A stretch of DNA of 64,000 nt from Squalus acanthias (lineage: Eukaryota), in contig CM059432.1 in the NCBI GenBank assembly GCA_030390025.1, forward strand, positions 89,406,001-89,470,000, written 5' to 3'. The position numbers and the translations under genes are program-made. The stretch's first letter is position 1. Each line of letters starts with the position of its first letter. A model generated the notes under the pieces. It was not told the origin of the DNA. It searched no databases and saw only the letters and a program-made list of their open reading frames with translations. Positions 3,482 through 48,891 of this stretch are shown piece by piece.

Positions 3482-6093
3482 GTGGCTGAACATTGGAGCG
3501 AGCAGGCACCCAGGTTATCCGATAATACAATGGAGGTCTTGGTGGAGGAGGTGGAAATGAGAGATGTCCTGTATCCGCAGGGAGCCAGGAGGCCCTCCAG
3601 ACACACAGTGAAAAGACAGCATAAGCAGATAGCCGTGGAGGTCAATGTCAGGAGTCTAGCCCCGAGGACCTGGACGCAGTGCCCCAAGATGTTTAATGAC
3701 CTCACACGAGTGGTCAAGGTCTGTGAATGCATTTTCAAAAGACGTCTCCCATCAACTGCACCAATAGCCTCAGCCACTGCTCAAATCACCACACCCCCAT
3801 CACTCACCTACCAGCACTCTCTATTAATCAGGACTCATACCTAACATGCATATGCTTCACCTCACACTCACACACCTAGCAAGCCTCACACCCACATCTC
3901 CCAGCTTGCACACACTTCCCTCTCTCTTACAGGGGAAGGTGGCGCACAACCGAAGACAGCAAGAACTAACCGGAGGGGGAGAAACGTGTCTGCATGTTCT
4001 AACTCCCGTGGAGGAGATGGTGCTGGCCATCATGGGCAGGGCCATTGCTGAGGCTGTGGCCAGCAGCAGGGCTGAAACCATTGAAGATGACGGTATCCTC
4101 ATCCCTAATCCTCCTTCTCACATCCCACTTCCTCCTCCCACAATATCTTCTGACTTACAAGCTGCAGATGGTGTAAGCATGCACCTCTTACTCCCCGCCC
4201 CCTCACCACAACCTTACCCTTGTGCCTTTTTCCTTTCAGACACCCAAGAAGTGAAACCTGGCCAGGCAGTGGAGGAACACCAAGAAGAATGTGATGATGA
4301 AGACACACCGTCACTTGATTTCACACACGCAGCCACTAGTTCAGATACTTAGAGGATATATTAGAGGCGGGATCTGCATGGGGTGAGACACTGGGCACAA
4401 GTGCGCTGCAGCCAGGGCAGGGGACACGGATAGTGCAGGTTTGCAGCTTGCCGGAGGGCGAGGTCACACAAGAGCTCTGCTGCAGACAACTCAGATGAGG
4501 ACTTTGATGGTCCAGGCTACAGAAGAAGGCTGATGGATATACACAACGGGACAGAAATTTGGCTGTTGTCGGGTGAGTACGCTCTGTGTACTCACCCGTA
4601 AGGCCACCTGAAGTGCCCGTTTCCTGCATGCACTGCGTATGCACGGGAAACCGGAACTTCCGTTCCTCTGAAGGGAGAGGTTCAGAAGTTGAACGCGTGC
4701 GCGGGAGAGGCTGCGTGCACGCAGCGAACTTCAGTTTTTTTTCAGGTTTCTCCGGGAAGGTAAGTATGAAGAAGCTGCACTTTTAAAAAGGAGACGCAAG
4801 GCCTGTTTTTAACAAGGTAAGTGGTTAATTAATTACAATTTAAAAAAAATTTCAACAGGTTTATCTTTTTTAGATACTTTAAAGAAAGGTAAGTTTATTT
4901 TTAGCACCGTTAAAAAGTATAATTAATTTTTTCAAAAATTTAAATTTTTGTTTAAAGTAGTTAATTTATTTAACTTATAGTTATTTTAAAAATGTGATTT
5001 TTAAAAAAAACTTATTTGAAGTTTAAGTGTGGTTTTGGGGCCGATCTCTATTCGTAGATTTGGCAGGTCTTCCTGTCAAATCTATGAATGAAAATGTCCT
5101 GCTAGGATTGGCTCTCCATGGCCCACGTGATCCCAGGGGACGCTTCGAACTAACTGCGCCCCTGGGATACACAAGTACTGCGCGCCGGCAGCTGGAGGAG
5201 GCCCAGGACCCGAAGTCCTCGTGGGCCCAAAGCACAACTGTAGGTGCGGTAGGCAAGTACGTGCGCGATGCTTGCACCCGCAGGAAGCCTGAAAGCTGAA
5301 TTTCTGGCCCAACGAAATGCTTGGTGCATTGGGAAGCCTGCTAGAAAGCCTGTATTCAATGTCAAGGAGCATGGAGGAGTCCGGTACCAACTTTGCACAG
5401 GGCTTTACACAGAGCTTGGAGCCCATCCTTTCCAGCATGGAACTGGTGGCCAACACCATTAGCACACAAGTGGACCCACCGATGATGCATGATGGTCGAC
5501 GTCTCAGCTTCCATTGCAGAACAAACAGCTTACACCAATAGAATGAGTGCTGCAGTGCAAACTCAGGCTGAAGTCATGCAAGGCCAGTTTGCTGCCACAC
5601 AAGCTCAGACTGGTCTCATGCAAGCTTAACTTACTGCCATGCAAGCTCAGAATGCTGCCATCATGGCTGTGGATACCATGTTGAAAGGGGCTTGCAGGGT
5701 ATCACAGCAGTCCATCAATCTGTCCTCCAACTGATTACTAGAATTGCTGAGGCGCCACCCCGGGGAGTGGCTGTGGCTCCATGGAGCACAAACCTCAGGA
5801 TGACAGCATTTGTCCTCCAACCCCGGCCACTCTGCCAGTGCCCTTGTTGTTGTCTGTTAGGCAGCCAGCCCAGGCTGCTGCCGCCCATGCCGAGATGGTG
5901 GAGTCCGAAGCTGGGCCTTCTAGGCCCAGAGCTACTCGAGGTTATCCTCCAAAGCCATCTGCAGTCTCCTCCACTGAAAGTCAGCAGCCTTCCAGCAGCC
6001 ATGCTGCAGCCTCTGGGATACCACTCCATAGAAGCACTAGAACAAGCAAAGGCACATAGAAGACAGGCACTAAGGGAATGCACAAGGTTGATT
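3482..6093 (+). pseudogene. Harbinger Myb/SANT-like DNA-binding protein, three exons (3482-3718, 3933-4092, 4240-~6093), disrupted
   Basis: APRLSD..MEVLVEEV...IAVEVN...RTWTQC..FNDL motif, then GKVAHNRR...TGGG. GT-AG introns join in frame (phase 0, then phase 1). Exon 3 has stops and frameshifts and a MITE insertion. Confidence 0.8.
4548..5310 (+). mobile_element. Non-autonomous Harbinger-type MITE (~763 bp)
   Basis: TIRs GGGACAGAAATT / AATTTCTGGCCC with 3-bp TSD AAC (4545-47, 5311-13). Removing it restores the host Myb exon. A near-identical inverted copy lies at 14696. Confidence 0.92.
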
Positions 6094-8412: not shown

Positions 8413-10385
8413 ATCATAGAATCATAGAATGGTTACAGCACGGAAGAAGACCATTCGGCCCGTGGAGCCTGTGCCAGCTCTCTGCAAGAGCATTTCAGCT
8501 AGTCCCACTCCCCCGCCCTTTCCCCGTAGCCCGGCAAATTTCTTTCTTTCAGATATTTATCCAACTCCCTTTTGAAAGCCGTGATTGAATCTGCCTCCAC
8601 CACCCTTTCAGGCATTGCATTCCAGATCTTAACCACTCGCTGCGTAAAAGAGTTTTTTCTTACGTCGCCTTTGGTTCTTTTGCCAATCACCTTAAATCTG
8701 TGTCCTCTGGTTCTTGACCCTTCTGCCAATGGGAACAGTTTCCCTCTATCTACTCTGTCCAGACCCCTCATGATTTTGAACACCTCTATCAAATCTCCTC
8801 TCAATCTTCTCTGCTCCAAGGAGAACAACCCCAGCTTCTCCAGTCTATCAACGTAACTGAAGTCCCTCATTCCTGGAGTCATTCTCATAAATCTTTTCTG
8901 CACCCTCTCTAAGGCCTTCACATCCTTCCTAAAGTGTGGTGCCCAGAATTGGGGTACTCCAGTTGGGGTCGAACCTGTGTTTTATACAGGCTCATCATAA
9001 TTTCCACGCTTTTGTACTCTATACCTCTTCATGAAGCCCAGGATCCCATAAGACTTTTTAACTGCTTTCTCAACCTGCCCTGCCACCTTCAACGATTTGT
9101 GCACACATACCCCCAGGTCTCTCTGTTCGTGCACCCACTTCAGGATTGTACCATTTAGTTTATATGTCCTCTCCTCATTCTATCACACTTTGCTGCATTA
9201 AATTTCATCTGCCACGTGTCCGCTCATTTCACCAGCCTGTCTATGTCTTCCTGAAGTTTATCACTCTCCTCCTCACTGTTCACTATACTTCCAAGTTTTG
9301 TGTCATCTGCAAATTTTGAAATTGTGCCCTGTACACCCACATCCAAGTCATTAATATATATCAAGAAAAGCAGTGGTCCTAGAACTGACCCCTGGGGAAC
9401 ACCACTGTATACCTTCCTCCAGTCCGAAAAACAACCGTTCACCACTACTCTCTGTTTCCTACCACTTAGCCAATTCCATACCATGCTGCCACTGTCCCTT
9501 TTATTCCATGGGCTTCAACTTTGCTGGCAAGCCTATTATGTAGCACTTTGTCGATCGCCTTTTGGAAATCCATGTACACTACGTCAACTGCATTACTCTC
9601 ATCAACCCTCTCTGTTACCTCATCAAAGAACTCAATCAAGTTAGTTAAACACGATTTGCCTTTAACAAATCCATGCTGGCTTTCTTTAATTAATCCATAC
9701 TTGTCCAAGTGACTGTTAATTCTGTCCCTGATTACTGTTTCTAAAAGCTTCTCCACTACCGAGGTTAAACTGACTGGCCTATAGTTGCTGAGTTTATCTT
9801 TACATCCTTTTTTGAACAAGGGTGTAACATTTGCAATTCTCCAGTCCTCTGGCACCACCCCGTATCTAAGGAGGATTGGAATATTATGGCCAGTACCTCC
9901 GTGATTTCCTCCCTTAATTCCCTCAGCATCCTAGAATACATCCCATCCGCTCCTGGTGACTTATCTACTTTAAGTACAGCCAACCTTTCTAATACCTCCT
10001 CTTTATCAATTTTTATCCTATCAAGTATCTCCACTACCTCCTCCTTTACTATGTCTATGGCAGCAACCTCTTCCTTGGTGAAGGCAGATGCAAAGTACTC
10101 ATTTAGTACCTTTGCCGCCATGCATAGGTCTCCTTTTTGGTCCCTAATCGGCCCCACCCCTCCTCTTACTACCCTTTTACTATTTATATGTATATAGAAG
10201 ACTTTTAGATTACCTTTTATATTGGTTGCCATTCTATTCTCATACCCTCTTTTTGCCCCTCTTATTTTCTTTTTCACCTCTCCTCTGACCTTTCTATATA
10301 TAGCCTGATTCTCAGTTGTATTTGCAATCTGACATCTATCATACGCGCTCTTTTTCTGCTTCATCATATTCTCTATCTCTTTCGT
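8413..10385 (-). mobile_element. CR1 LINE, 5'-truncated
   Basis: RT motifs [24 protein letters not shown] and KFADDTK in frameshifted ORFs; (ATTCTATG)n tail. Confidence 0.95.
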
Positions 10386-14470: not shown

Positions 14471-14695
14471 ATTGTCCTTCATCAGAACAATCCCTGCTTC
14501 TCTGCATGAATAGCCATGTCCAACATCTCTTTCAGCCCTTCCACCCTTAAATAAACTGCATACACCCCAAGACCAACATTAATATTTGTGTCAACTAGCA
14601 TTGCAGGATCACTAGCTGCTACAGGAATATTCTCTGCACTCCAAGATTTCAAAAAGGTTTATCATTTCACTTACACAAATGCTTACATACTTATT

Positions 14696-15447
14696 GGGCC
14701 AGAAATTCGGCTTTCCGGCTTCCTGCGGGTGCAAGCATCGCGCGCGTACTTGCCTACCGCGCCTGCCGTTGTGCTTTGGGCCCATGAGGACTTCGGCTCC
14801 TGGGCCTCCTCCAGCTGCCGGCGCGCAGTGCTTGCGTATCCCAGGGGCGCAGTTAGTTCGAAGCGTCCCCTGGGATCACGTGGGCCATGGAGAGCCAATC
14901 CTAACAGGGCATTTTCATTCATAGATTTGACAGGAAGACCTGTCAAATCTATGAACAGAGATCGGTCCTAAAACCACACTTAAACTTCAAACAAATTTTT
15001 TTAAAAATCACATTTTTAAAATACCTATAAGTTACATAAATTAACTACTTTAAACAAAAATTTAAATTTTTGAAAAAATTAATTATACTTTTTAACGGTG
15101 CTAAAAATAAACTTACCTTTCTTTAAAGTATCTAAAAAAGATAAACTTGTTGAAAAAATGTTTAAATTGTAATTAATTAACCACTTACCTTGTTAAAAAC
15201 AGGCCTTGCGCCTCCTTTTTAAATGTGCAGCTTCTCCATACTTACCCTCCCGGAGAAACCTGAAAAAAAAATCGAAGTTCGCTGCGTGCGCGCAGCCTCT
15301 CCCGCGCACGCGTTCAACTTCTGAACCCCTCCCTTCAGGAGAACGGAAGTTCTGGTTTCCCACACATGCATGAAACTGGCACTTCAGGTGGCCTTACGGG
15401 TGAGTACACAGCGCGTACTCACCCGACAAGAGCTGAATTTCTGGCCC
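14696..15447 (-). mobile_element. Harbinger-type MITE, second copy (inverted relative to 4548)
   Basis: TIRs GGGCCAGAAATTC / GAATTTCTGGCCC with TSD ATT (14693-95, 15448-50); reverse-complement match to 4548-5310. Confidence 0.92.
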
Positions 15448-15450
15448 ATT

Positions 15451-16130
15451 ATCACCCAGATGTGAGCCCATGGTGCCTGTTTTAAGTGCTCCCTTACCTA
15501 ACTAGTGCACCTAAGAGATGCTCCCCCAATGTGTTCAGCATGGGAGATGGAGAAGCTAGTGGTCAGCGACTTCTAGGAACTTGGGCCTGAGAGGGCCCAC
15601 TACAGACAGCAGCAACTCAGTGTCCTACCAGGCCAATCTGGCCCAACTGACTTTTTGACTCCTGGGCAGGCATTGGTTGAAGGGTACAAATGCACTGCCA
15701 TTTGAGAGAAGGCAACACGTTGCATTCTCATTGCACAACTGTCACTGCCATCAGGCTGCAGCTCAGCACTCCCACTGATTTGCATGAGAGCAAACTGTAA
15801 GGCATCCAAGATAACATTGAAGCCGCTATCCATTCTATCTCCTAGCCTGTCCAAGCTGGAGAAGCTGGTGGAGCCAAAAGCCTGCAGGGCACCAATATGA
15901 GCAACCCTCAGAGATGCTACCACTGTGCCAGAGGCTCCTGCAAGCATAGCCCTGCTGCTGTGTCCATTGAGATGACCACACGCTCCATGGTTAACTGCAA
16001 AGTGTTGATGCCAAGTTGGTAGTGGACTTCTCTATACTCTATTTCATGTTGTGGAAGCAGTCCAATACATTCAATAATTACTGAAGCGCAGAAAGATTTT
16101 TCTGTGCCCCTAAAGCCTGCAACTCACTGT
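15451..16130 (-). pseudogene. Decayed Harbinger Myb C-terminal region (probable partner of the 13690 transposase)
   Basis: Tail-to-tail position relative to the transposase; weak similarity to Myb exon 3 of the other copies (e.g. GPSGP-like motif, Ala/Gln-rich helix). Confidence 0.4.
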
Positions 16131-16552: not shown

Positions 16553-18413
16553 AGAAAAACTCCAAATCTAGAGCCCCCTGGATATCATGGGGCATACAGG
16601 ATAGGATAAGGCAAAAAAGGGAAGCTTATGTCAGATACCGAGAGCTAAATACTGCAGAAAGCCTAGAGGAGTATAGAAAGTGCAGGGGTGAAATTAAAAA
16701 GGCAAAGAGAGGGCTGATAAAATATTGGCAAGTAAAATCAAGAAAAACTTTGCATCTGTCTTCACAAAAGAGAGGGGCGATGCAGACATTGTAGTTAAGG
16801 AGGAGAAGTGTGAAATATTAGATGGGATAAACTTAGTGAGAGAGGAATTATTAAGGGGTTTAGCATCTTTGAAAGTAGATAAATCACCAGGCTTGGATGA
16901 AATATATCCCAGGCTGTTAAGAGAAGCAAGGGAGGAAATAGTGGAGGCTCTGACCATCATTTCCCAATCCTCTCTAGCTTCAGGTGTGCTATCGGAAGAC
17001 TGGAGGACTGCTAACGTTGTACCATTGTTTAAAATGGGAGAAAGGGATAGACCGAGTAATTACAGGCCAGTCAGCCTAACCTCGGTGGTGGGCAAATGAT
17101 TGGAAAAAATTCTGAGGGACAGTATTAATCATCATTTAGAAAGGCGCAGATTAATCAAGAACAGTCAGCATGGATTTGTTAAGGGATGGTCATGTCTGAC
17201 TAATTTGATTGAATTTTTTGAGGAGTTAACAAAGAGGGTTGATGAGGGTAGTGCGTTTGATGTAGTCTACATGGATTTTTAGCAAGGCTTTTGACAAGGT
17301 TCCACATGGCAGACTGGTCAGAAAAGCAAAAGCCCATGGGATTCAAGGGAAAGTGGGAAGTTGGATCCAAAATTGGCTCAGTGGCAGGAAGCAAAAAAAC
17401 AGATGTTTTTGTGACTGGAAAGTTGTTTCCAGTGGGGTTCCACAGGGCTCAGTACTAGGTCCCTTGCTTTTTGTGGTATACATCAATGAGTTAGACTTCA
17501 ATAAAAAAAATTGTCTGTGTGATTGATAGTGAGGAAGAAAGCTGTAGACTGCAGGAAGATATCAATGGACTGGTCAGGTGGGCAGAGAAGTGGCAAATGG
17601 AATTCAATCCAGAGAAGTGTGAGGTAATGCATTTGGGAGGGCTAACAAGGCAAGGGAATACACAATAAATGGTAGGATACTGAAAAGTGTAGAGGAACAG
17701 AGAGACCTTAGAATGCATGTCCACAGATCCCTGAAGGTACCAGGACAGGTAGATAAGGTGGTTAAGAAGGCATATGGGACACTTACCTTTTATTAAGCTG
17801 AGGCATAGAATATAAGAGCAGGGAGGTTATGCTTGAACTGTATAAAGCACTAATTAGGCCACAGCTAGAGTACTGCATACAGTTCTGGTCACCACATTAC
17901 AGGAAATATGTTATTGCATTAGAGAGGGTACAGAGGAGATTTGCGAGGATGTTGCCAGAACTGGAAATTTTTAGCTATGAAGAAAGATTGGATAGGCTGG
18001 GGTTGTTTATTTGGAACAGAGGAGACTGAGGGGAGATTTAATTGAGGTATATAAAATTATGAGGGGCCTAGATAGAGTGGATAGTAAGGACCTTTTTCCC
18101 TTAGCAGAGAGGTCAATAACAAGAGGGCAGAGATTTGAAATAATTGGTAAAAGGATTAGAGGAGCGTTGAGAACTTTTTTCACCCAGAGGGTGGTGAGGG
18201 TCTGAAACTCACTGCCTGAAAGGGTGGTAGAGTCAGAAACCCTCATCACATTTAAAAGTACTTGGATATGCACTTGAAGTGTTGGAACCTACAAGGCTAT
18301 GAACCAAGAGCTGGAAAGTGGGATTAGGCTGGATAGCTCTTTTTCGCCCGGCACAGACACATTGGGCCAAATGGCCTCCTTCTGTGCTGTAAATTTCTAT
18401 GATTCTATGATTC
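16553..18413 (+). mobile_element. CR1 LINE, 5'-truncated
   Basis: DKSPG, NYRPVSLTS, QHGF and RPQLEYC motifs in frameshifted ORFs; (TTCTATGA)n tail. Confidence 0.95.
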
Positions 18414-29310: not shown

Positions 29311-31179
29311 TCATAGAATCATAGAATGGTTACAGCACGGAAGAAGGCCTTTCGACCCATTGAGCCCATGCTGGCTCTCTGCAAGAGCACTTCAGCTAGT
29401 CCCACTCCCCCGCCCTTTCCCCGTAGCCTGGCAATTTTTTTTCCTTCAGGTACTTAACCAACTCCCTTTTGAAAGCAGTGATTGAGTCTGCCTCCACCAC
29501 CCTTTCAGGTATTGCATTCCAGATCCTAACCACTTGCTGAGTAAAAAAGTTTTTCCTCATGTTGCCTTTGGTTCTGCTGCTAATCACCTTAAATCTGTGT
29601 TCTCTGGTTCTCGAACCTTCTGCCACGGGAACAGTTTCTCTCTATCTACTCTGTCCAGACCCCTCATGATTTTGAACACCTCTATCAAGTCTCCTCTCAA
29701 TCTTCTCTGCTCTAAGGAGAACAATCCCAGCTTCTCCAGTCTATCCGCATAACTGAAGTCCCACATCCCTGGAATCATTCTCGTAAATCTTTTCTGCACC
29801 CTCTCTAAGGCCTTCACATCCTTCCTAAAGTGCGGTGCCCAGAATTGGACACAGTTGAGGCCCAACCAGTGTTTTATACAGGTTCATCATAACTTCCTTG
29901 CTTTTGTACTCTATACCTCTATTTATGAAGCCCAGGATCCCGTAAACTTTTTTAACTGCTTTCTCAACCTGCCCTGCCACCTTCAACAATTTGTGCACAC
30001 ATACCCCAGGTCTCACTGTTCATGCACCCCCTTTAGGATTGTACCCTTTAGTTTATATTTCCTCTCTTCATTTTTTCTACCAAAATCTATCACTTCACTC
30101 TTTTCTGCGTTAAATTTCATCTGCCACGTGTCCGCCTATTCCACCAGCCTGTCTATGTCCTCTTGAAGTCTATCACTCTCTCCTCACTGTTCACTATACT
30201 TCCAAGTTTTTTGTCATCTGCAAATTTTGAAATTGTGCCCTGTACACCCACATCCAAGTCATTAATATATATCACGAAAAGCAGTTGTCCTAGAACTGAC
30301 CCCTGGGGAACACCACTGTTTAACTTCCTCCAGTCCAAAAAACAACTGTTCACCACTACTCTGTTTCCTGTCACTTAACCAATTTCGTATCCATGCTGCC
30401 ACTGTCCCTTTTATTCCATGGGCTTCAACTTTGCTGGCAAGCCTATTATGTGGCACTTTGTCGAACGCCATGTACACCACATCAATCGCATTGCCCTTGT
30501 CAACCCTCTCTGTTCCCTCATCAAAAAACTCGATCAAGTTGGTTAAACACCATTTGCCTTTAACAATTCCTTAATTAATCCACACTTGTCCAAGTGACTG
30601 TTAATTTTGTCCCTAATTATTGTTTCTAAAAGCTTCCCCTCTACTGAGGTTAAACTGACTGGCCTGTAGTTGCTGGGTTTATCTTTACACCCTTTTTTGA
30701 ACAAGGGTGTAACATTTGCAATTCTCCAGTCCTCTAGCATCACCCCCATTTCTAAGGAGGATTGGAATAATATGGCCAGTACTTCCACGATTTCTTCCTT
30801 CACTTCCCTCAGCGTCCTAGGATGCATTCCATCTGGTCCTGATGACTTATCTACTTTAAGTACAGCCAGCCTTTCTGGTACCTCCTCTTTTTTTATCCCA
30901 TCCAGTATCTCCTCTACCCCCTCCTTCACTATGTCTATGGCAGCATCTTCTTTCTTGGTGAAGACAGATGCAAAGTACTCATTTAGCACCTCTGCCATAC
31001 CCTCTACCTCCATGCGCAGGTCTCCTTTCTGGCCCCAAATCAGCCCCACCCCTCCTCTTAATATCCGTTTACTATTTATATGCCTATAGAAGACTTTTGG
31101 ATTACCTTTTATGTTAGCTGCCATTCTATTCTCATACCCTCTCTTTGCCCCTCTTATTTTCTTTTTCACTTCTTCTCTG
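29311..31179 (-). mobile_element. CR1 LINE, 5'-truncated, nested in Harbinger B
   Basis: Same subfamily as 8413; RT motifs and (ATTCTATG)n tail. Confidence 0.95.
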
Positions 31180-34100: not shown

Positions 34101-34723
34101 TGGCTAGGGAAGGGAGTTTCTGGCAGGGACCAAAGACAATGGCTTCGGTCTTCCCAATATTTAGTTGGAGGAAATTTCTGCTCATCCAGTACTAGATGTC
34201 GGACAAGCAGTCTGACAATTTAGAGACAGTGGAGGGGTCGAGAGAAGTGGTGGTGAGGTAGAGCTGAGTGTCATCAGCATACATGTGGAAACTGACGCTG
34301 TGTTTTCGGATGATGTCGCCAAGGGGCAGCATGTAGATGAGAAATCGGAGGGGGCCAAGGATAGATCCTTGGGGGACACCAGAGATAACGATGCGGGAGC
34401 GGGAGAGACGCCGTTGCAGGTGATTCTTTGACTATGATTAGATAGATAAGAATGGAACCAGGCGCGTGCAGTCCCACCCAGCTGGACGACATTGGAGAGG
34501 CGTTGGAGGAGGATGATGTAGTCAACCGTGTCAAAGGCTGCAGACAGGTCGAGAAGGACAAGGAGGGATAGTTTACCTTTGTCACAGTCACATGGGATGT
34601 CATTTATGACTTTGATAAGAGCCGTTTCGGTACTGTGGCAGGGGCAGAAACCTGATTGAAGGGATTCAAACATGGAGTTCCAGGAAAGATGGGCACGGAT
34701 TTGGGAGGCGACAACATGTTCAA

Positions 34724-35226
34724 ACGAAAGATGAGGTGCTGTTCCTCGAGCTTACGCTGAGCTTCCGTGGAACAGTGTAATAGGCCGAGGACGGTGAGGT
34801 CAGAGTGGGAGTGGAGCGGAGAATTAAAGTGACAGGCCACCGGGAGCTCGGGGTCCCCCTTACGGACTGAACGGAGGTGTTCCGCAAAGCGATCACCCAA
34901 TCTGCGTTTGGTCTCCCCAGTGTAGAGGAGACCACATCGTGAGCAGCGAATACAGTATACTAAATTGCAGGAAGTACAAGTAAATCGCTGTTTCACCTGG
35001 AAGGGGTGTTTGGGGCCCTGGACAGTGGGAAGAGGGGAGGTATAAGGGCATGTGTTGCATCTCCTGCGCTTGCACGGGAAGGTGCCGGGCGAAGGGGAAG
35101 CGGTGCTGGGGGTGGTGGAGGAGTGGACTAGGGTGTCGCGGAGGGAGTTCTGACGAAAGGTCTTCGACCTGAAACGTTAACTCTGTTTCTCTCTCCACGG
35201 ATGCTGCCTGGCCTGCTGAGTTTTTC
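34724..35226. mobile_element. Penelope-like insertion: inverted GIY-YIG fragment plus ribozyme-bearing terminal segment
   Basis: NLVYCIRCSRCGLLYTGETKRRLGDRFAEH on the - strand; 12-bp TSD CAACATGTTCAA (34712-23, 35227-38). Confidence 0.92.
35145..35183 (+). ncRNA. Minimal type I hammerhead ribozyme
   Basis: GAGTT-CTGACGA-a-AGGTC ttc GACCT-GAAA-CG-TT-AACTC: intact core, 5-bp stem II, stem I GAGTT/AACTC and a palindromic stem III. Confidence 0.8.
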
Positions 35227-38200
35227 CAACATGTTCAAGGACTTTGCAGAGGAAGGGGAGGTTGGAGATGGGGGTCAAGGGTTGTTTTTTTGAGGAGAGC
35301 GCTGATGATGGCAGATTTGAATTAGGTGGGGGCAGTACCTGAGGAGAGAGAACAGCTAACAATATCAGCTAACATGGGAGCCAGAAAAGGAAGTTGGGTG
35401 GTCAGCAGTTTAGTGGGAATGGGGTTGAGGGAACAGAAAGTGGATCTCATGGACAAGATGAGCTCGGAGAGGGCATGAAGGGAGATCGGAGAGAAACTGG
35501 AGAATGATGCGAGTTCAGGGCTAGTGCAGGGGGGAACCTGAGAGGAATTTTGGCCTGGTTGGCTAGGGGAAGGATGGGAAGTGGCAGAGCCAGCTGATCC
35601 GATGTTCTTAATCTTAGAGACAAAGAAGTCCATGAGCTCCTCACACTTGCTGTTGGAGGTGAGGGTGGAGGAGAGAGGGGAGAGGGCTTTAAGAAGACGG
35701 TTTACAGTAGAGAAAAGAAGCCGGGGGTTATATTTATATTCCATAATGATCCCGGAATAGTGAGCAGTTTGGCAGATGAGAGCAGGACCCGATAGTGCTT
35801 TATGTGGTCCAGCCAGATCTGGCGGTGAATGGCTAAAACAGTTTTCTGCCATATCTGTTCAAGTCTGCGTCCCTTGGACTTAAGGGAGCAGAGATGAATG
35901 CCTTGCCAGGGGGAACGGCCAAGCTGAGAGAGAGTAATGGTTTTAATGGGGACTAGGGCATCAAAGGTGGTGGTGAGGGTGTGGTTGAGCAGATTGGTGG
36001 CTACAGAAATGTCATAGTGAATGGAAGCCAAAGGCTGGACAGTTGGGATTTTGAAAGTGCAGTTGTAAGTGAATTGGGAAAGAGTTTTTTCCAGGGGCGG
36101 ACACAGAAGGAAGTGGGATTGGGAGGGGGAAGGGGGATGTGGGTGGAGAGTGATATAAGGAAGTGGTCAGAGATGGCCTTATCTGTGATTGACATGAGGG
36201 GAGTAGCGAGGCCACCTGAGATGGCAAGTTAAAGGGGGTAGCAATGACTATGGGTTGGGGAGTTTACATGGAGGGAGAGATTACAGGAGGATAGGAGAAC
36301 AGTGAACTCAGAGGAGAGAGCATGATGAATTGAGATGGAGGTTGAAATCACCGAGGATGAGAATTTGCTCGGTGCAGAGGCTGAGGGAGGAAAGCAGTGA
36401 AGATATCTCGGTGAGAACATTTTTATGGTACTTGGGTGGGTGGTAGAGAACAAGGATTTTAACAAGAGGTGAGGGGGTGGAACAAGGTGAGATGCTCAAA
36501 GGAGGAGAAAGTGCCCGAGGAATAGGGGGACAGACCAAGGTGTGATTTGGTGATAAGAGCCACACCGCCACTGCGACAGTCTGGGTGGTGCAAGTGGTGG
36601 AAGCTATAGCCAGGTGGGGAGGCTTCATTTAGGGGGAAGGTGTCATCACCCCTCAGTCAGGTTTCCGTCAAGGCCATGATGTCAATGCAATCATCCACAA
36701 TAAGCTTATGATGGCAAGGGCCTTGTTCACAAGTGAATGGACATTCTGGAGGGAGATGCGGAGAGGGTCGGTGATAGCTGACCCACTGCCAGTGACCACA
36801 GGGTCAGTGCTGGGAGGGGTGAGTTGGACGGGGAGGTGATTGGCAAGATTAGCTCCTAGCGGGCGGGCAGGCGGGATGTTCAGCGAGAGAGTAGAATGGG
36901 ATAGTTGGGATTGCTGCTCGTAAGGAGGCAGTGACGAGTGCCTCGATGGGCCCTTCGGAGGATGCCAAGAGAGGCACAGAGGGAAGCTGTAGTCTTATCT
37001 AAGAGGGAGTCAAGCCTGGGACAGCAGCAGGACAGTAGGAAGGTCAAAGAATAATCAAGGGTTGGGGTAGGGATTTGGGAGGGCAGAGTACCCGAGAGGG
37101 GAGAAATGAAAGGAGGCATGACGACAAGAGAGAGCGGTCAAGGAAGGGTAGAGAGAAAAGAAAAGGGGGAGAAAAAAGTGGAAATAGAAGAGATCAGCTC
37201 GGGTCTGGAGCAGCAGCCAAAGTGTACACGCGAATGAACACAGGCAAAAACTCAAGTTACATAGGCCTGGTTATGTCGCATTTATTCGAATACATATATC
37301 CTGGTAGTAACAGGGAGTAGATAGGAGACAATAGGAGGGAGTCCAGAGCTAAAGTCAGAGGTCCCGTGGAGGGATAACGTTAACGTAGGTAGGGTGGAGT
37401 CAGCATGGTGCATCGACGAACTGTTGTCCAAGTTCGGAGATGGGTGTAGCGGGTGACTGAAATCCAGAAGCTATTTGAAGGGTAAAGAGTCAGAGGATGG
37501 AGGTTATTTCCATGGGAATGAAGATCCAGAAGATGTGCAGAATCGGTTGCGGGGCAGAAAGATGATGGTGAAGTTGGAGGTCACCGTAAGATCCAGAAGC
37601 AGATCCAGATACCCAAGAACTGCCAGCAGCCGAGCCAGTGCAAGAAGAACTAGAGGAGGAGAGTGATGCAGAAGAAGAAGCACTGTCACTCGAACTGACA
37701 CTCCCAGACACCAGCTCAGAAAATGGCACTGCGCAAACTTTAGAGGGGAGTTTAGAGGCGGGATCTACACACACTGGGATAGTTGGGGTTGCTGCTCGTA
37801 GCCAGGCCAGGGGAAAAGGTAGCGCACGTCCCAGCTCCCCGGAGGGCGTGTTCGCACACAAGTTCTGCTTCACAGGACTCAGATGAGATCTTTGATGGGG
37901 CAGCCTTCAGAAGAAGGGTAATGGGCATGCACACAGAACTGCTTGGTGCAATAGCAGGCCTGCCAGAGAGACTCTTGTCAATGTCAAGGAGCATGGGGGA
38001 GTCCGGCTCCAACATTGCACGGGGCTTTGCACGGAGTTTGGAGCCCATGATTTCCAGGATGGAAGTGATGGGCAACTCCATTAGAGCACTCGTGGACCCA
38101 ACCATGATGCTGGGTGTGAGAGGCCATCTCGCAGCTTCCATTGCAGCACAAGTGGAAGCGACCGAATGTTTGAGTGCTGCAGTGAAAGCTCAGACTTCTG

Positions 38201-45654: not shown

Positions 45655-46144
45655 CAATAGAATGTCTCAGGGATATCAGGAAACACCAGGATTAGTGCTT
45701 TCTCTGATCCAAGGAAATTTAAGGCCCTTGTCTTTTCCACTCTTGCCAGTACTTTTATGACTTACAGCCTTCTCTACATCTCAAAGTTGCTTTCTCCCTG
45801 AGCTGCCATTTTCCTTTCTCACTGCTCTACATGATCTGGTATTCATTTCTCGTTTCTCTTTCTTCCGCAGCTTGCTCGCTATATGCAAACCTTTACAGCT
45901 CTTTCTTAACTACCAGCAACTACACAAATGGATAGAATCATAGACACCACATCTGTATTGTTAGCAATCCAGTTTAGCGCAAGTATGTCCATCTAAACTT
46001 ACAGAAAAGTTACTATATTTAATTTTATTTATAAAAAGTGCTAATCATAGCCACATAAAGATGTGGTACAGAAAGTTAAATACACGATGGGGCTTACTGT
46101 AATACTAAAAAAAGTGGTGTGAGCCAGTCATAATCCAGCATTGC

Positions 46145-46243
46145 AGTTCTGACGAAGGGTTCGACCCGAAACATTGACTCTGTTTCTCCTCTCTTTGACA
46201 CTGCCTGACCTGCTGAGTGTTTCCAGCACTTTCTGTTGTTATT
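46145..46243 (+). mobile_element. Short Penelope-related retroposon headed by a hammerhead motif (46145-46179)
   Basis: AGTT-CTGACGA-a-GGGT tcg ACCC-GAAA-CA-TT-GACT; 17-bp TSD with 2 mismatches (46128-44, 46244-60). Confidence 0.8.
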
Positions 46244-46270
46244 TCATAATCCAACATTACTTACTTAACC

Positions 46271-46404
46271 AAAAGCAAAATACGAGAGATGCTGGAAATC
46301 TGAAATAATAACAGAAAATGCTGGAAATACTCAGCAGGTCAGGCAGCATCTGTGGAGAGAGAAACAGAGTTAACGTTTCAGGTCGATGACCCTTTGTCAG
46401 AACT
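46271..46404 (-). mobile_element. Short Penelope-related retroposon headed by a hammerhead motif (core mutated to CTGACAA)
   Basis: Reverse complement of the same family; flanks TACTTAACC / TGCTTAACC look like a TSD. Confidence 0.8.
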
Positions 46405-48891
46405 TGCTTAACCTTCAGACTCATGAGTCATGTAGACCAGTGTCACTTAGAGGTTTCTTTTTTTTCAGTAAACCACTGAATCTGTTATAAATTCTCTGCG
46501 TAAAACGTGCTACAATAATTTACTCAGAAAGTGAGTTGGAAGCAGTATTGGTCAGGGTCACTTTAGGATGTGATTGGTAATATTCAGATTGCCTTTGGAA
46601 TGTGCCCACATTCTAGAATGAGGATTGCAATAAGAAATGGCCTCAGGAGCAGTACATTATTTTTGAAGAATGTAGAATGACAATCTGCTAATGGACAGTG
46701 CTCTTCAAGGGCAATCATTTGGCAACGGGCACAGATAATTAGCCATTTTTTCTACAGATAAAAGGTACCTCTTTTTATTGAATTTACAGTACAGTAATGC
46801 AATCTATATTAAAAAGAATTGTTAGACACCTATTAAGTAACAGTATTTTGCATGTCTCTTGCAAATGTGGAGGCTCAGAATATAGTTACTAGTGACTAAT
46901 CATGTTGTAAAGGAATATAAATTAATCAATTAGCCTGAGTGGCTGTATATGTCAATGTTTCATTCTTTTTCCATACTGAAACCATTTTCATTATATGCCA
47001 TAAGCCAGCCACGGCACTTTGAACAATTCAGAAAAGCAGCCTATTAGCAAACTGTCTCCTGAATAATGGTATCAACTTTCCTGGTGGTGTTTCATATTCC
47101 AGAAGAAAATGTGGGTCCAGGAACACTATTACTTGTCAACCTAGCCCATGACAGGTCAGGTCAGTTCACCTCAAAGGCATTCTGAACATAGATAAACTGT
47201 TCCCATTCTAATCCCAGATGCTGTTGATATGAAAATATCATTTTAAATCATTCAAATTTAAGGAGAGAAGGAGGCTACTTCAACCAATTGTGCACTGAAA
47301 ACCCCATAATGGAGCTATTTACTCTAGTGCAATTTTGCTGCTCTTTCCCTGTTCCCGTGAATATTTCAAGGCACCAAAAATCCAGGGAAAGGATGGGAGG
47401 GGGTGGGGGGGTTGGGGGGTGGTGGTGGAAAGCTCCTGCCCAAGACCTCTGCCACTGACCCTCAAAAAGTTTGTTGGGTCAGAGAGATGGCTCTTAATTT
47501 GCGTAGGAATGGTGGGCACCCCACCAATAAGGCCACATACTGTGGCAGAAGAGTGAATGGCAGTAGGGGTATCAGGGTCCCTCCAGAAAGTACAGTCAAC
47601 TTCCCCATGCGTCCTTCTTCATAAGGGGGCTGCATTTAAATATGAACTTTTTAAAATTCACCCCTTTTACTTTGGAGCTCTAGATTTCAGATCCCAACCT
47701 GGACTCCCAAGTGGACCCCAAAACCACCTGTTGGCAGCCTGATAGGCCTGGTCCCTATGTGACCAGGGATGCAGGAACTCCCGGTATTGGGAGTCCCCTC
47801 CCCATCCTACATTGGTGGCCTTGTATGGGGTGAACAGGCTCTGGCCCTTCCAAGACCTATGGAATATCCTACATATGGTTGAGATCTGGAGTAGCCAATT
47901 CCTGTCCAGATTTCTAGCCCTTCCAGTGCAGTCCCTCTGGAGTTATGGTGAGTGCACCCAGGGGCACATAAACGCACAGGTCTACAGGACCCATGTACAG
48001 GGAGCCCAGCCAAACATGGGGCCCCTGCCAGAGGTGGCGAGTTATGTCCAATAGGCAGCTGGCCTGCTGAAGCTGAGGACCTCAACCTCCCCACTCCCGA
48101 TCCTATTGGAACAAGAAGCCACTCGTCAACACCTGTGAGTTCCAGCAGGAGCTCAGGCTTCTGCGTTGGGGTAGGTAATTAATGGGGATTGCGGGAAACG
48201 ATTGTGCAGGGGTACGGAGGGCCCCCGAATGTTTTGGTGCCCAGGGCACCAGAAGTGCCGCAGATTTTAATCCCCCAATTGTTTATCTAACTGTCTCTCA
48301 AACAGTATGATTGAATTAGCTTCAGTAGCCATTCGTGGTAATGCATTTTATATTGTAGTAGCCCTTTGTATAACAAAGTTTCTTCCATCTCTCCCTTTGT
48401 GCTTCCAGATGTAATCCTAAATTTATGCCCCCTTGTTACGAATCATCAATTAGTGGAAATATTTGTTTCACTATTTATTCTCTCAAACCCTTTCATAATT
48501 CTGAACACTTCTATTAGAATTCTCCCCCCTCCACCTGCCTAAGCTTCTCCAATAAGCACAATCCTAGTTTTTCAAGACCCTCATCATAACTATAGCCTCA
48601 CATCTAAACGCTCATTCAAATCAATTTACACACAATCCTTTCCATGGCTCCAGTATCCTTTCCATAATGGAGTGCCCAAAATGATACAATACTGCAACTG
48701 ATTGCTTGTACTGATTCATTATAAGTTCCTTGCTTTTATATTCAATATAGCCAATGATTCTATGATTTTATGAATGTCCCGAAATATAAAGCCCAGAATT
48801 TAATTTGTCCTTTTAATGTTTTTTCCACCTGCAATCCTGCTTTTGTGTGTCAACTGTGGCTCAGTTGGTAGCACTCTCGCCTCTGAGTCAG

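Follow-up and report, generated by a model that had tools for sequence, protein, structure and literature searches.

The two short inserts that stand tail to tail in the stretch of Squalus acanthias DNA analysed here (64,000 nucleotides, hereafter the window) are, judged by their sequence, terminal repeat (pLTR) end-pieces of a Neptune-like Penelope element of ~3.4 kb, and the fixed 5' boundary at which they begin quite likely represents a template end of some kind. That boundary is probably where the template RNA has its 5' end, located at the transcript start near +1 (the A of AGTTCTGAC in the numbering used throughout), with the hammerhead motif being copied uncut. An earlier note on this DNA had described the inserts as members of a separate, non-autonomous family of ribozyme-capped retroposons mobilised by Penelope. 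The Penelope origin is borne out by their match to the pLTR of a full-length RT/GIY-YIG element, L031, while the separate family finds no support.

Window BLAST found exactly three family members, each beginning at +1 (Table 1). The two elements, both TSDs and the common AGTT start reported by the earlier note are real, according to this search and to a random-flank test of the TSDs. The 17-bp copies of the element 1 TSD differ by two transitions, and the TSD of element 2 comes to 12 bp if the three bases overlapping the element start (microhomology) are included. Since their identities to the family reference differ (85% vs 95%), the two are probably separate insertion events at adjacent targets, as had been proposed. 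Their lengths of 99 and 134 bp follow from the two 3' ends of the parent (about +100 and +137), element 1 ending at the proximal one. The third copy, at 35146, shares the +1 start that was claimed for it but is not free-standing, forming the inverted arm in a larger Penelope insertion that has TSDs on its flanks and a body half of 426 bases on the minus strand. The body of this composite insertion starts at -328 and its arm reaches to about +81, neither position being close to the usual start sites, and the joins carry target-like bases, an arrangement that resembles twin priming.

Table 1. Penelope-derived features of the window. TSD scores were compared with those of 2000 random flank draws from the window.
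Feature	Position	Strand	Detail
Composite insertion TSD, left copy	34712..34723	+	perfect 12 bp
Penelope body piece -328..-743, endonuclease-coding end	34722..35147	-	head-to-head with arm, 2-base overlap
Third copy, inverted pLTR arm +1..about +81	35146..35226	+	hammerhead core intact
Composite insertion TSD, right copy	35227..35238	+	perfect 12 bp
Element 1 left TSD copy	46128..46144	+	17 bp; 4/2000 random flanks score as high
Element 1, pLTR stub +1..about +101	46145..46243	+	99 bp; 85% identical to family reference
Element 1 right TSD copy	46244..46260	+	17 bp
Element 2 3'-side TSD copy	46262..46270	-	9 bp, 1 mismatch
Element 2, pLTR stub +1..+134 including ~35-nt tail	46271..46404	-	134 bp; 95% identical
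Element 2 5'-side TSD copy	46405..46413	-	0/2000 random flanks score as high

Some further observations concern the window itself. The target of element 1 (46128-46144) resembles +101..+118 of the element's own sequence, and several other TSDs match the element 3' end over an overlap of as many as 8 bases, which hints that primer and RNA pair in some insertions. Standing tail to tail, the two elements give rise to a long hairpin (46202-46345) that scores weakly on plant miRNA models, these being the two matches of an Rfam scan, both below the gathering score. The hairpin is a chance outcome of the arrangement, but is a possible source of double-stranded RNA. Dispersed repeats that also occur in the retrieved loci lie at 4575-5312, 14690-15420, 17404-18276, 29458-30370 and other places.

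The reading of the insert heads as minimal type I hammerheads is supported, with some corrections. The motif pattern of the minimal type I form is present, with its core, helix I, unpaired base and palindromic 15.2-16.2, at 46145-46179 in element 1 (predicted cut after 46175, the 31st base) and at 46404-46368 in element 2. The palindromic G at position 16.2 is lost in element 1, the core of element 2 reads CTGACAA, with G8 changed to A, and among the three window members the core is intact only in the 35146 copy. Two forms account for 157 of the 293 motif matches among the retrieved loci. These common forms have G-U or A-U in place of the G10.1-C11.1 closing pair, G-C being confined to element 1 and rare variants. 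No Rfam hammerhead model matched the inserts, and minimum-energy folds contain stem II and lack stem I, with z-scores between -0.7 and +0.6; the hammerhead call rests on the motif pattern, since Rfam and folding gave it no support. Predicted cleavage falls after +33 in family numbering, in agreement with the earlier placing of the common start ~30 nt upstream of the cleavage site.

The family has at least 20,600 copies, counted from two 37-base motifs (+59..+95) that match the 3.7-Gb genome exactly at 15,515 and 5,102 places. Of the 30 best genomic matches, about half or more continue upstream into common sequence. The full-length copy L031 (5243-8770) is composed of pLTR, broken ORF, 3' UTR and pLTR, the two pLTRs (5243-5368 and 8646-8770) being 95% identical. 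Its broken frames contain DKG, YIDD and VY..YTGET (GIY-YIG-type) motifs, its linker CKHRRCNTC has the form CX4CXXC, within the CX2-5CxxC of Neptune, and the ORF starts with an ATG at about +168, apparently after the tail. A direct Pfam scan of three pieces of the broken ORF gave nothing at 0.001, and a PDB scan of the pieces gave no match. Among 326 homologues of this ORF, the best of them from sharks and rays, many carry PF00078 (RT) and some PF01541 (GIY-YIG). Judged by motifs and linker, L031 fits a Neptune-like EN+ PLE, and the features of EN+ PLEs are found here: a single ORF with RT and C-terminal GIY-YIG, a pLTR at both ends, an optional 30-40-nt tail, an inverted 5' arm and TSDs.

The ends of the family were studied in 124 distinct copies (94 + 30) anchored on +59..+95, these being the first contig-1 matches by position among the 100 listed for each motif; upstream of +59 the sampling takes no account of the 5' end, and top-match sets, being selected by similarity, were omitted from the 5'-end statistics. 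The 3' ends of these copies are bimodal, near +100 and +137, which matches the two RT start sites and tail of the Anolis element (PMC11167929) and thereby explains the two insert lengths. The 5' ends fall at -1..+6 in 36 of the 100 copies reaching +6, with the mode at +2, a density of 6.0% per base vs 0.24-0.38% elsewhere (0.38% over +58..+7 and 0.24-0.29% upstream), or about 16-20x background. Genome-wide pattern counts agree, so that the common 5' end noticed earlier in three copies is shared across the genome. For one variant, apparent starts number 456, 646, 546 and 455 at +3, +2, +1 and -1, and copies intact from -4 number 5,490. Of every 100 matches listed, about 12-32 are, counted by hand, long copies with a point change, and a rough chance-match correction puts the true ends at about 550, 930, 410 and 350, in the same order. 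A 5' end defined by cleavage is rejected, since only three ends lie in +30..+39 (0.26% per base, the background rate), and the earlier view that self-cleavage does not explain the start is upheld.

TSDs, 10-15 bp in length, score at least 9 in 22 of 67 solo-type copies vs 5 of 400 shuffled pairs. They are recognisable in a minority of solo-type copies (12 of 26 in the peak class) and not in most. In most peak copies they abut or overlap the start, which means that no upstream flank was copied. Head-to-head joining with an inverted element piece is seen in 38 of the 124 copies. One such junction, with the inverted arm joined via a common CAG, recurs in 7 of 100 matches listed as a preferred microhomology. 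Separately, L153 and L369 (the same site, G000:C1 near 24364347), L115, L152 and L190 have GTTCTG/TTCT repeats stacked before the start, as if RT had reached the end and then re-primed several times.

Further evidence on the boundary comes from insertions in which the terminal repeat was copied twice. Of 148 distinct loci anchored on the ORF start (90 and 70 of 100 listed places, duplicates removed), 66 have this two-pass form, with an upstream piece that crosses the pLTR into the ORF, mostly to +195..+340, followed by a jump to a downstream piece ending at +100 or +137. Where flanks were read (L220, L351 and L280), one TSD encloses both passes. In the 12 loci whose upstream piece (the second pass) reaches +9, this piece ended in the peak at 6 of the 6 loci where the downstream piece (the first pass) began there, and at 1 of the 6 remaining loci (Fisher test, 0.008 one-sided and 0.015 two-sided). 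The second pass never ran more than 12 bases beyond the first (12/12, permutation p 0.005), with the 12-base tolerance chosen post hoc, after the data had been seen. Linked stops, though seen in a small number of loci, favour a template 5' end over a per-passage pause, which predicts independence. Mini-element masters for the two-pass loci were considered and rejected, as the recurring ORF-side breakpoints (+235, +271) have differing partners, making these loci independent events. It was also observed that a first pass reaching farther upstream goes with a jump deeper into the ORF (Spearman -0.58, p 2.5e-5, 46 loci within set ranges among L201-L360), which may reflect RNA geometry or the positions of microhomology.

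A defined RNA end, one of the causes that the earlier note had raised, is the likeliest, favoured by the peak at -1..+6 and by the linked two-pass stops. The bases at the start, TCCA+1GT, fit the initiator consensus. A G precedes A+1 in 46 of 81 non-long matches listed (counted by hand, with A in 22 and T in 13, the pattern not admitting C), and, in a set of 80 A+1-class loci from which 11 long or direct ones were set aside, at 20 of 44 flank-type junctions (background 27%, p 0.007) and at 19 of the 25 inverted ones. An extra G derived from the cap has been reported for full-length L1 (PMC11702581), and the excess seen here may be taken as a weak sign of a copied cap, suggestive only. Of the copies that have extra bases beside a clear TSD, 15 in all, nine have A as the last extra base, five have G and one has T, with a lone untemplated G in only one of them, and the excess may also have its source in very small pieces, inverted or duplicated, or in the GA-rich inverted arm. 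Fold-back of the cDNA on stem I was rejected as its source, since it predicts CAG, found in only 2 of the 46 G matches (9 have AG; hand count). Several points count against run-off from an RNA beginning at +1. The mode is +2, not A+1, and ends are spread over 8 bases, from -2 to +6; of the 44 5' pLTRs reaching +7, 14 stop at -3..+7 and 30 go further upstream, so that a second class of template is needed; in L221 the second pass stopped at -2 despite a first pass to -185; and the D. virilis start lies ~120 bases upstream of helix I, where an intron ends (PMC2377424, PMC4209133).

A template ending near +2 could instead be produced by processing, through a 5'-3' exonuclease stalled at a protein-bound hammerhead or an acceptor-like CAG event, and this would explain the peak and the two-pass linkage equally well. 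The start is preceded by a splice-acceptor-like pyrimidine tract ending in CAG at -1..+2, the mode of +2/+3 lies at this acceptor, and the 5' edge of helix I is where the D. virilis intron has its end (PMC4209133). Against this, no spliced junction linking a separate upstream exon of the element to +3 was found in 38 peak copies or in 30 loci of the +2 class, the long loci of which are contiguous copies with a point change. The only donor-like hexamers in the ~460 bases upstream lie at about -351 and -459, and the G excess is better matched by a cap. Since the TSDs for the most part adjoin the start, no host exon was captured. Spliced or host-exon templates were rejected on the missing junctions and the position of the TSDs, and processing as a whole is judged unlikely. 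Pausing or release of RT at about +2 on a longer RNA, owing to fold, protein footprint or sequence, with subsequent joining to the target or a jump, would agree with the equal stop fractions in 3' copies (36/100) and 5' pLTRs (14/44), as given by a constant stop probability, but is at odds with the dependence between the two passes. Arrest at the fold, which the earlier note had raised, is disfavoured by the further reasoning that stem I has only 4 bp, is absent from the minimum-energy folds and would have had its 3' strand copied first; a pause of any of these kinds is quite improbable. Trimming of the intermediate by the endonuclease at CCAG/TT would place the making of the boundary at the DNA level, in line with the endonuclease resolution proposed for PLE ends (PMC8557442). 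However, TSDs start mostly with AT, AC or TA (14/22), unlike CCAG/TT, the ends spread over 8 bases, and it is left unexplained why, at positions further upstream, the second pass does not go beyond the first; such trimming is very improbable.

A different alternative is that the short copies form a family of ~100 nt with masters of its own, SINE-like or retrozyme-like. The TSDs of the peak-class solo copies would suit this, as would the derivation of retrozymes from pLTRs (bioRxiv 10.64898/2026.07.22.740005) and an A at +13 that is commoner in short copies (17/38 vs 14/60), giving the lowest p of the comparison, 0.044 uncorrected. Once corrected, however, the comparison of 38 peak copies with 62 longer ones gives no difference at any of 16 variable sites, and the master lineage with diagnostic changes expected of a SINE-like family is not seen at these sites. 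Divergence is similar (6.3% in short vs 5.2% in long copies), the 3'-end split is alike, and in about two thirds of copies the sequence continues into the 3' region of the parent. No head-to-tail pLTR lies directly upstream in any of the 124 sampled copies, one of which (L199) is a two-pass insertion, and the tandem head-to-tail hammerhead units of non-LTR retrozymes are likewise absent (0/124). The +1 start is found also in inverted arms and in 5' pLTRs continuing into the ORF, implying a template that carried ORF sequence. Moreover, the stubs lack the stretch beyond the tail that has to be present in the RNA for the Anolis protein (PMC11167929). As far as these sequence comparisons go, a separate non-autonomous family is not supported, and its existence is very improbable. 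It may be added that the +13 A variant has 555 +1 starts genome-wide vs 546 for the G variant, yet is rarer among long copies (14/60); subfamilies may differ in how often stubs arise.

The preferred reading, run-off at an RNA end near +1, can be set out with the biochemistry of the Anolis protein, which makes its nicks in AT-rich DNA, binds RNA where pLTR and ORF meet, begins reverse transcription internally at two sites, requires RNA downstream of these and uses uncut RNA, hammerhead cleavage being unnecessary for insertion in vitro (PMC11167929). If transcripts of the present element start at about +1, the junction bound by the protein would be that between the 5' pLTR and the ORF. Priming at +100 or +137 would then lead to run-off at the RNA end after 100-137 bases, leaving a solo stub with the ribozyme motif uncut, while longer copies would derive from transcripts with a more upstream start, whether from a long 5' pLTR or as tandem or circular RNA. 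Two-pass insertions would result when RT re-primes further 3', mostly at +195..+340, and recopies the pLTR, and stubs without the downstream region would be dead ends rather than masters. A fuller version, put forward tentatively and with somewhat more doubt than belief, holds that a capped transcript starts at the first base of stem I, that the enzyme, working on its own mRNA, reverse-transcribes the 5' pLTR as far as the cap and is able to prime again on that RNA at 60-200 bases into the ORF, and that the ribozyme heads the mRNA uncut. If this is true, the genome would hold thousands of natural 5'-RACE products showing an uncut ribozyme at the head of an mRNA, and full-length transposition would need a different template, longer or circular.

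The genomic record bears on which RNA PLEs copy and what role the hammerhead plays, most short copies probably deriving from uncut RNA with a defined 5' end. It yields a prediction at the level of single bases, namely RNA 5' ends at -2..+3, and two-pass insertions form an internal control that is repeatable in any PLE-rich genome. It also counsels caution, in that such stubs ought not to be filed as new SINEs or retrozyme monomers.

Among known systems, the minimal type I hammerhead has the CUGANGA and GAAA core, 4-bp helix I, unpaired base before helix II and palindromic 15.2-16.2 seen here, and occurs mainly as dispersed single motifs and opposite-strand pairs. The present motif differs in its helix II of 5 bp, with G-U or A-U closure in most copies, and in that copies begin at helix I and not at the cut site. 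With non-LTR retrozymes the family shares pLTR derivation, a type I hammerhead and many monomers; those are defined by tandem units (bioRxiv 10.64898/2026.07.22.740005), whereas the copies here are solo or inverted, and the two-hammerhead loci have differing breakpoints. Penelope of D. virilis likewise has an internal promoter in the pLTR and an acceptor-like site at helix I, although its start lies 46 bases before a 75-base intron rather than at helix I (PMC2377424); no spliced copies occur among those examined here. Poseidon PAc of Anolis, as studied in vitro, resembles the present element in its two RT start sites spanning the tail (Frangieh 2024, PMC11167929), AT-rich nicks, extension of both strands and uncut RNA template. 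It differs in that its ORF begins within stem II and not, as apparently here, after the tail, and no treatment of 5' ends was found in the text of that study (PMC11167929). The closest likeness is to EN+ Neptune/Nematis PLEs, which have an ORF with RT and C-terminal GIY-YIG, a Cys-rich linker, a pLTR with optional 30-40-nt tail, an inverted 5' arm, solo pLTRs and TSDs of ~10 bp (PMC8557442, PMC3846280). Solo pLTRs are ascribed in these accounts to recombination or deletion, and neither a fixed 5' boundary in about a third of the copies nor two-pass insertions with linked ends were found described there (PMC8557442, PMC3846280). No fixed 5' start of solo pLTRs was found in the open literature, taken as that outside subscription papers, Repbase notes and supplementary figures. 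The element is thus of a known kind, with a fixed start that is apparently undescribed and is open to experimental test.
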